Source: a virus
Strand: one strand, 5' to 3'
IMG/VR virus record: IMGVR_UViG_3300042430_001927
DNA: 17,977 nt
This document shows positions 13,140-13,877 of the stretch, piece by piece. Position numbers and translations under genes: made by a program. Every line of letters begins with the position of its first letter. Within the stretch, counting starts at the first letter, position 1. The notes beneath the pieces were generated by a model that saw only the letters and a program-made list of their open reading frames with translations, made no database searches and was not told the DNA's origin.

Positions 13140-13628
13140 ATGTTTATCAATAACAAATATACCTCTTGGTATATCTCATTGGTTAGTAATGCTCAAACTA
13201 GAAATTTAGATAGATCTGTCTATACTGAAAAACATCATATTATTCCCAAGAGCCTAGGGGGCAATGATGCAAAAGATAATCTTGTTAGACTTACTGGCAA
13301 AGAACATTTTGTAGCACATTTATTACTTACCAAAATGACCTTTGGGGTCAATGCAAGAAAAATGGCCTTTGCCTTGTGGCGGATGACACAAGATAATAAG
13401 AAACGAGACAGGTTCCGAATGTCTTCTCGGCAATATCAAAATATCAAAACTGGCATGAGCGAGGCAATGAAGGTACATAACAAAGGCAAGAAACTTTCTC
13501 CAGAGCATATTCAGAAAGTAAAAGAGGGAATAGCAGCAAAAGGCGGGGCACATAATAAAGGCAAATCTATGAGCGAGGATCAGAAACACACGCGCCTTTT
13601 GGCTAGGGGTGATTGGGAATGTTCATAA
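13140..13628 (+). CDS. HNH homing endonuclease, N-terminal catalytic part. The frame is cut short by a TAA at 13626.
   Basis: A GGAG Shine-Dalgarno lies 6 nt before the ATG at 13140 (MFINNKYTSWY...). HHIIPKSLGGNDAKDNLVRLTGKEHFVAH is the HNH motif. The NUMOD3-like repeats KLSPEHIQKVKEGIAAKGG and KSMSEDQKHTRLLARG follow. The ORF-track start at 13056 has no SD. Confidence 0.75.
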   Translation: MFINNKYTSWYISLVSNAQTRNLDRSVYTEKHHIIPKSLGGNDAKDNLVRLTGKEHFVAHLLLTKMTFGVNARKMAFALWRMTQDNKKRDRFRMSSRQYQNIKTGMSEAMKVHNKGKKLSPEHIQKVKEGIAAKGGAHNKGKSMSEDQKHTRLLARGDWECS

Positions 13629-13877
13629 GAAACTCGCCAAAAAATATCTCAAGGGGTTAAGAGAAGAGCCGCAGATAGATCTAAACCCTATCAGAAAGGC
13701 ATTCCTAGATCTCGTATGACATTTGTGTTACAGAATTCAATTACTCAAGAGCAGGTGGAAACCTGTAATTTGAGACAGTGGTGTGTATCCCAAGGATTCT
13801 CTAGTGGCATGATTTATCTGAATAAATCTCCCTGGAAGATAATATCCAAGGTACCCTTACATAAGGGACAATTGTAA
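13140..13877 (+). pseudogene. HNH-NUMOD3 homing endonuclease gene interrupted by a single in-frame TAA at 13626-13628. Either a decaying homing endonuclease gene or a recoded or readthrough gene.
   Basis: The same frame stays open for 82 codons after the TAA, up to the TAA at 13875-13877. The downstream peptide ETRQKISQGVKRRAADRSKPYQKGIPRSR continues a NUMOD3 repeat, with consensus HSEETRQKIS. The stop sits where the conserved Glu (GAA) is expected, so a single G-to-T change would explain it. Confidence 0.55.

Follow-up and report, generated by a model that had tools for sequence, protein, structure and literature searches.

Here, we describe a homing endonuclease gene that is cut by a single in-frame stop codon in a viral DNA of 17,977 nucleotides (IMG/VR record IMGVR_UViG_3300042430_001927; this whole stretch is called the window in the following). 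The gene lies at positions 13140-13877 on the plus strand. We consider it likely that a recent ochre mutation has become fixed in one lineage and that the window carries an early-stage defunct allele of a homing endonuclease gene that has long been resident in a clade of probably huge phages.

The open reading frame (ORF) of the endonuclease starts with an ATG at 13140, 6 nt downstream of a GGAG, and ends after 162 codons with a TAA at 13626-13628. Beyond this TAA the same frame stays open for another 82 codons (13629-13874) and is closed by a second TAA at 13875-13877. The other five frames over the same 246 nt contain three to eight stops each, and the chance of an open frame of 82 codons at the local base composition is 0.002 by shuffling and 0.003 by calculation. 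The remnant past the premature stop is probably still transcribed, since a strong hairpin (13896-13921) comes only after the full-length stop. Re-initiation at ATG 13716, the first in-frame ATG past the stop, was considered and rejected: it has no Shine-Dalgarno sequence and the methionine is not conserved in relatives.

The part upstream of the stop matches PHROG 655 'homing endonuclease' (E = 1.7e-42) and the Pfam family HNH (21.9 bits at a cutoff of 21.4; E = 1.9e-4), and the residues H32, H33, N47, H56 and H60 are invariant across 18 aligned sequences. At the DNA level, repeat units of 25 codons can be seen, and an 18-nt direct repeat, 75 nt apart, marks two NUMOD3-like units. Among cultured phages, Sinorhizobium phage phiN3 has the best match: its 'MobE homing endonuclease' shows 37.8% identity to residues 1-221 in a single tblastn piece that spans the position of the stop. 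Endonucleases of T4-like Klebsiella phages match residues 6-242. When 12000-15000 was compared with 50,697 phage records by megablast, no match was obtained. Judged from its sequence, the gene is a free-standing Mob-type HNH homing endonuclease gene in an intergenic position between conserved genes, and its host is probably an uncultured, huge phage.

An intact allele was indeed found in a search that covered 5.8 billion proteins. The nearest intact homologue, P0001, has 245 residues, is 97% identical and covers 100% of the fused reading frame. It reads ...GDWECSEETRQKIS... around the stop codon and has GAA where the window has TAA. Between its gene and window 13140-13877 there are 20 nucleotide differences, T13626G among them. 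P0001 is encoded on about 20 contigs, all of which have the neighbourhood of the window: an MCD-like 146-aa gene, a tRNA, a leader and the endonuclease gene, followed by convergent genes for an 829-aa protein with the shoulder domain of the major vault protein (MVP) and for a TilS-like protein (PF01171). Since P0001 represents the same locus in a sister lineage and has GAA there, one G-to-T transversion is all that is needed to explain the stop. An earlier note on this DNA, made from the letters alone, had proposed just this change, together with a stop at 13626-13628 and 82 further open codons; the ORF reading bears out the frame, and the alignment with intact homologues bears out the transversion. 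The note had also called the affected glutamate conserved. This holds for P0001 but not for the family: all 17 full-length relatives carry a sense codon at the stop position, but glutamate is found in only five of them, aspartate and proline in three each, and leucine, cysteine, alanine, asparagine, serine and valine once each.

The two lineages differ by 2.7% in the gene and by 3-5.5% in its flanks, and this similarity indicates vertical co-inheritance of the gene with its surroundings. More distant relatives are found at the same locus as well. P0002 and P0003, with 254 aa and 47-49% identity, are encoded on contigs of up to 462 kb, flanked by the MCD-like gene on one side and a block of TilS-like, R2K_3 and saccharopine-dehydrogenase genes on the other. 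The neighbouring proteins of the distant relatives are 54-60% identical to those of the window, with the endonuclease at 47-49%; a comparison of the loci L034 and L033 gives 68% identity for the endonuclease and 60% for the flanking proteins. Because these relatives diverge in step with their neighbours, the full-length gene is an old, maintained resident and the stop is the derived state.

The allele with TAA is not rare. The exact 162-aa product is encoded on at least 40 contigs, to which come eight contigs on which the protein was called as 190 aa from an upstream ATG, and it has index entries in 74 blocks of the assembly collection. Contigs with this allele came from four sources (NCBI, JGI/IMG, ENA and Logan assemblies). 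The eight contigs that were read (L010-L017) are base-identical to the window throughout the 738 nt of the gene and in flanks of 400 nt on its upstream and 300 nt on its downstream side, and over about 10 kb they are 99.2-99.98% identical to it. The TAA is linked with 19 other fixed differences from the GAA lineage. In all, at least 48 contigs carry the TAA allele versus about 20 with the intact one. The TAA allele is thus fixed in a near-clonal, widely sampled lineage.

How old is the mutation? In the part before the stop, 7-8 synonymous and 5 non-synonymous changes separate the two alleles, and the ratio of non-synonymous to synonymous rates (dN/dS) is about 0.15. Downstream of it there are 4 synonymous and 2 non-synonymous changes and no indels (dN/dS about 0.13), and one of the two replacements, C209Y, is polymorphic within the intact lineage, where P0125 has cysteine. 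Neutral drift of the downstream part along the whole branch predicts about 9 non-synonymous changes, and 2 are seen (P about 0.006). Compared with the intact allele, the window allele has no second lesion, that is, no extra stop and no indel past the TAA. Because there are 2 downstream replacements instead of about 9, the nonsense mutation is, on this comparison of alleles, recent. The same data allow a continued constraint on the tail, but since the lineage is clonal, youth is the simpler reading.

What has been lost with the C terminus? AlphaFold gave a confidence (pLDDT) of 77.5 for the full protein and 80.9 for the 82-aa tail, and the two models agree. In the tail, a predicted helix of residues 164-180 extends the NUMOD3-like series and is followed by a linker and a compact domain of residues 192-240 with the order strand-strand-helix-helix-strand (pLDDT about 90). 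Pfam NUMOD3 is found on the window protein weakly (E = 0.076) and only with the glutamate restored; among the 18 aligned sequences, six have NUMOD3 at E <= 0.1, the best with 9.8e-5. The statement of the earlier note that the downstream codons clearly continue the NUMOD3 repeats therefore needs to be narrowed: it applies, weakly, to the first approximately 17 residues, which resemble a NUMOD3 helix, whereas the other approximately 50 form a separate compact domain. Pfam scans of the C-terminal segment gave no family. In a Foldseek search of viral models the lowest E was 0.019, and the weak matches included many phage HNH, GIY-YIG, NUMOD and MobE proteins; with the full-length model against the PDB, only weak HNH matches were obtained (E >= 0.6). 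A profile of the tail aligns to the C terminus of phiN3 MobE. The domain is retained in 17 of 17 relatives of the locus-sharing subfamily. Mob proteins share an N-terminal HNH domain and have a protein-specific C-terminal domain that is presumably DNA-binding (PMC2790892), and by this analogy the lost tail is presumably a subfamily-specific DNA-targeting module.

In the compact domain (window 13716-13874), strands and helices follow each other as in a GIY-YIG core (b1 b2 a1 a2 b3), and the sequence has a GIY-YIG-like pattern, FVLQN..EQVET.NLRQW, without the catalytic residues. An origin from a GIY-YIG-like protein was considered, but it is speculative only: there are weak fold matches to SLX1, I-TevI and GIY-YIG proteins, none of them significant.

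The gene resembles the T4-type Mob enzymes (MobA-E, for example phiN3 MobE) in its N-terminal HNH domain and in being free-standing in an intergenic position, and probably also in the NUMOD3-like repeats that follow the HNH domain and the presumed protein-specific module at the C terminus (PMC2790892). It differs from them in that its host is an uncultured, probably huge phage and that it is cut by a nonsense codon. A further difference is the narrow range of its C-terminal domain, which a local hmmsearch with the tail profile found in 19 of 126 retrieved homologues, the closest relatives, apart from three weak matches.

From these data the following course of events is likely. A clade of uncultured and probably huge phages has for long had a Mob-type HNH gene as a resident of one locus. 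In the one near-clonal lineage to which the window belongs, a G-to-T change turned Glu163 (GAA) into an ochre codon (TAA). The 162-aa product still has the intact HNH catalytic core and two NUMOD3-like repeats but lacks the third NUMOD3-like helix and the approximately 50-aa beta-beta-alpha-alpha-beta domain, and with them it has probably lost its site-specific activity. The cause may be relaxed selection: since the element is present at every close allele recovered, nothing would select for homing, and the disabling mutation could spread along with the phage lineage. The option of an early-stage pseudogene, one of three in the earlier note, is supported by the intact allele at the same locus, the single lesion and the lack of further decay. 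We also count as support that the same lineage has three further losses or lesions within 6 kb: a deletion that took the 3' half of a tRNA(CUA) and a 189-aa gene, a deletion of R2K_3 and an insert in a tRNA(CAU). In line with this reading, the truncated endonuclease gene is present on every contig that has the exact upstream 146-aa gene of the window.

Such a state is not without precedent. I-TevIII of T4 is a defunct allele whose intact form is found in RB3 (PMC2790892). As is likely for the window, an HNH homing endonuclease is dead in one phage and intact in a close relative at the same locus, and the dead copy persists (PMC2790892); but I-TevIII is intron-encoded and suffered an internal deletion, whereas the gene described here is free-standing, has a single nonsense substitution and still has its whole coding sequence. 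The life cycle of homing endonucleases in the model of Goddard and Burt, as it is cited in PMC2988022, runs through invasion, fixation, degeneration and loss. An element present in every close allele, with a first disabling mutation and no further decay yet, fits well into this scheme. However, the syntenic orthologues with 47-49% identity track their neighbours, and hence the intact gene has been kept far longer than a rapid cycle predicts.

Several points weigh against a defunct allele. No endonuclease-free allele was found by a look-up of the exact 146-aa protein, by scans of IMG/VR with the endonuclease and the MVP-like protein or by a scan of JGI metagenomes with the MVP-like protein; the scans gave only distant relatives (59% identity) in a different context. 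Since no empty site of this lineage was recovered, the mobility of the gene is assumed from its membership in the family. Natural relatives of 162-172 aa, consisting of HNH and NUMOD3 only, exist, and a protein of such length could still be an active nuclease. The contigs cover 18-43 kb of a probably much larger genome, and an ochre-suppressor tRNA could be encoded elsewhere. Finally, the lineage is too young for relaxed constraint downstream of the stop to show, and so the word 'pseudogene' has its basis in the lesion itself.

The natural short relatives lead to the alternative that the 162-aa protein is a functional short nuclease of HNH and NUMOD3, tolerated or even favoured, with altered or relaxed specificity, and that the stop is an ordinary terminator. 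We consider this unlikely, though it is the main alternative. These relatives (P0027, P0036, P0045, P0046, P0051, P0099 and others) end near the same point, and the existence of such a subfamily indicates that a nuclease of the truncated length is a viable architecture. The truncated protein also keeps all invariant residues of the HNH core, and more contigs carry the TAA allele than its intact counterpart. However, contig counts reflect the abundance of the host phage and not the fitness of an allele. Furthermore, the short relatives have a different tail of their own, conserved as ..ELWYKRHAETHKGK.., and are not cut inside a repeat, and the 17 relatives in the subfamily that shares this locus have without exception kept the C-terminal domain.

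Programmed readthrough or ochre suppression, by which a catalytic-only and a full-length, targeted form would be made from one gene, was another option of the earlier note, but we regard it as very improbable. The downstream frame is intact and its dN/dS is low, but a young mutation accounts for this just as well. Both release factors, RF1 and RF2, recognise UAA, the tightest and least leaky stop in bacteria; here, it is followed by G. None of the 17 relatives has a stop at codon 163. A stable RNA structure at the stop was not found, as the 121 nt of 13600-13720 fold no better than shuffled sequences (z = 0.04), and Rfam gave nothing at E <= 1 in 11600-14000. In addition, TAA is the commonest genuine terminator in the window, ending 12 of 21 ORFs including the full-length form of the endonuclease gene; TAG and TGA also serve as terminators. 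Programmed readthrough of a stop codon in a phage is known from the A1 protein of Qbeta, and the known phage cases use UGA or UAG, with the stop conserved among relatives. Like the A1 gene, the window has an in-frame stop followed by an open homologous extension; unlike there, the stop is a UAA that occurs in a single clonal lineage only, and neither its context nor the RNA structure shows a signal.

Suppression would be favoured by the suppressor-type tRNAs with anticodon CUA that the clade encodes (L001-L005, L033, L034). However, this anticodon reads UAG and not UAA, and the tRNA is half-deleted in the lineage of the window, and a rescue by it was therefore rejected. Standard ARAGORN detected no tRNA in the window, and a tRNA with anticodon UUA was absent from the window, which is part of a genome, and from 13 related loci. 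A variant in which a suppressor tRNA from the unsampled part of the genome partly decodes the ochre codon, both forms are made and selection holds the downstream frame is less probable still. Reassignment of TAA to an amino acid can practically be dismissed: some huge phages recode stop codons and the clade has genes for suppressor tRNA(CUA), but known phage recoding concerns TAG or TGA, all three stops end ordinary long ORFs of the window, TAA most often, and no other gene has an in-frame TAA. The same is true for a base-call or assembly error with a G as the true base at 13626, the remaining option of the earlier note, which would agree with the single-base difference from the intact allele but is refuted by the presence of the same allele in independent assemblies from four repositories and different assemblers, by the base identity of 8/8 inspected loci and by the linkage to 19 other fixed differences.

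The features of the locus are compiled in Table 1. Upstream of the endonuclease gene is a leader of about 95 nt (13045-13139, plus strand) without a match in Rfam. Its conservation across five lineages is about 90%, compared with only 47-49% identity of their endonuclease proteins. Its other copies are at L003 9908-10000, L033 5907-6000, L034 5908-6000 and L039 109-208 (minus strand). The ATAAAT core of the TATAAATA box at its 5' edge is conserved in the window, L003, L033 and L034, and the stem of hairpin 1 occurs in the variants CCTGTTG/CAACAGG, CCATTTG/CAAATGG and CTTGTTG/CAACAAG. Possibly, the TCCCA predicted to pair with the Shine-Dalgarno sequence masks the ribosome-binding site. The leader could be a promoter plus a translational-control element, or a separate small RNA. 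On L039 (IMG/VR contig IMGVR_UViG_3300047550_003451, 1-210, minus strand), the same leader precedes a different ORF, MAKYPYQEICKFCTSPF..., which has weak matches to HNH endonucleases in PHROG (E = 0.0056) and is cut by the end of the stored DNA; on the other side are a tRNA(CAT) and a full-length TilS gene. A different HNH-like ORF behind the same leader suggests that endonuclease genes may replace each other at this locus.

Table 1 Features of the endonuclease locus (positions in the window)
Feature	Position	Strand	Description
TATAAATA box, 5' edge of leader	13045-13052	+	One of two exact matches in the window (0.25 expected); possible promoter
Leader hairpin 1	13058-13089	+	RNAalifold, 5 lineages: 11 pairs, 3 of them changed on both sides
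Leader hairpin 2 (CGGCTTGG-AGCC-CCAGGCTG)	13090-13109	+	8 predicted pairs; stem invariant in 5 lineages (no covariation); unique in the window
TCCCA (13110-13114) with Shine-Dalgarno TGGAGA (13129-13134)	13110-13134	+	Predicted pairing, consensus fold
Truncated homing endonuclease ORF	13140-13628	+	162 codons; HNH core H32, H33, N47, H56, H60; two NUMOD3-like repeat units, then stop
Premature TAA (ochre)	13626-13628	+	GAA (Glu163) in the intact allele
Untranslated remnant	13629-13877	+	82 codons and original TAA; third NUMOD3-like helix (residues 164-180), beta-beta-alpha-alpha-beta domain (residues 192-240)
11-bp GC-rich hairpin	13896-13921		Separates the convergent endonuclease and MVP-like genes; follows the full-length and not the premature stop

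Directly upstream of the leader is a tRNA gene (12867-12991, minus strand) with all four arms intact and a 48-nt insert in the anticodon loop. It is missed by standard ARAGORN and by Rfam and is called Pro(CGG) by ARAGORN in intron mode, and when the insert is taken out in one way, the tRNA regains the CAT anticodon that its 77-nt orthologues in L033 and L039 have. Within the insert is a T-arm-like hairpin, GAGGTTCAACTCCTC, and the sister lineage has a different 88-nt tRNA(CAT) at this position. The tRNA with the insert, which adjoins the TilS-like gene, may be a tRNA-Ile2. The tRNA of the amber-suppressor type (anticodon CTA) is conserved in the sister lineage (L003 8616-8691) and also in L033 and L034, which are distant relatives. 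The window has kept no more than its first 35 nt (11755-11789, minus strand); the rest was lost, together with the 189-aa gene, through a deletion of about 840 nt that has one end within the anticodon loop. A second deletion spans about 1 kb and lies between two copies of CTGCACAGTTG (window ~17144-17154; L003 14017-15033). It took the genes for an R2K_3 ATP-grasp protein and a 120-aa protein and left a fusion ORF of 48 aa; both the sister lineage and L034 have the R2K_3 gene.

Three larger genes of the window should be mentioned. The convergent gene at 13949-16438 (minus strand) encodes the 829-aa protein with the shoulder domain of the major vault protein (PF11978). Among 50,697 phage records it matches only LR756500, LR756501 and LR756503, with 37% identity, which are uncultured huge phages of 462-735 kb; since these are its only matches in phage records, the protein suggests that the window may itself come from a huge phage. 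At 5126-9508 (plus strand) a protein of 1460 aa is encoded, the N-terminal part of which is collagen-like (G-x-T) and which contains dozens of repeats of 17 aa (51 nt). Contigs that are near-identical in other respects differ in its length, which ranges from 1307 aa on L012 to 1670 aa on L003 and L005 of the sister lineage, and it is probably a variable fibre or receptor-binding protein. At 1610-2878 (plus strand) there is a 422-aa ORF of an IS605 OrfB/TnpB-like gene, with PF01385 and PF07282 on the L012 orthologue.

The event described here is ordinary and well understood in kind; the subfamily and the host are new. For annotation it is an example of two ORFs that are to be merged and flagged as one disrupted gene. 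If the short product were active, or readthrough real, the locus would bear on the trade-off between specificity and activity in modular HNH enzymes, but nothing here points in this direction. No concept is changed by the finding. As a defunct allele, the gene provides a natural snapshot of the first step of decay, since sister lineages that co-circulate have, at the same locus, an intact allele and one with a single hit, and it may serve as a time-series marker for the rate at which a selfish gene decays.

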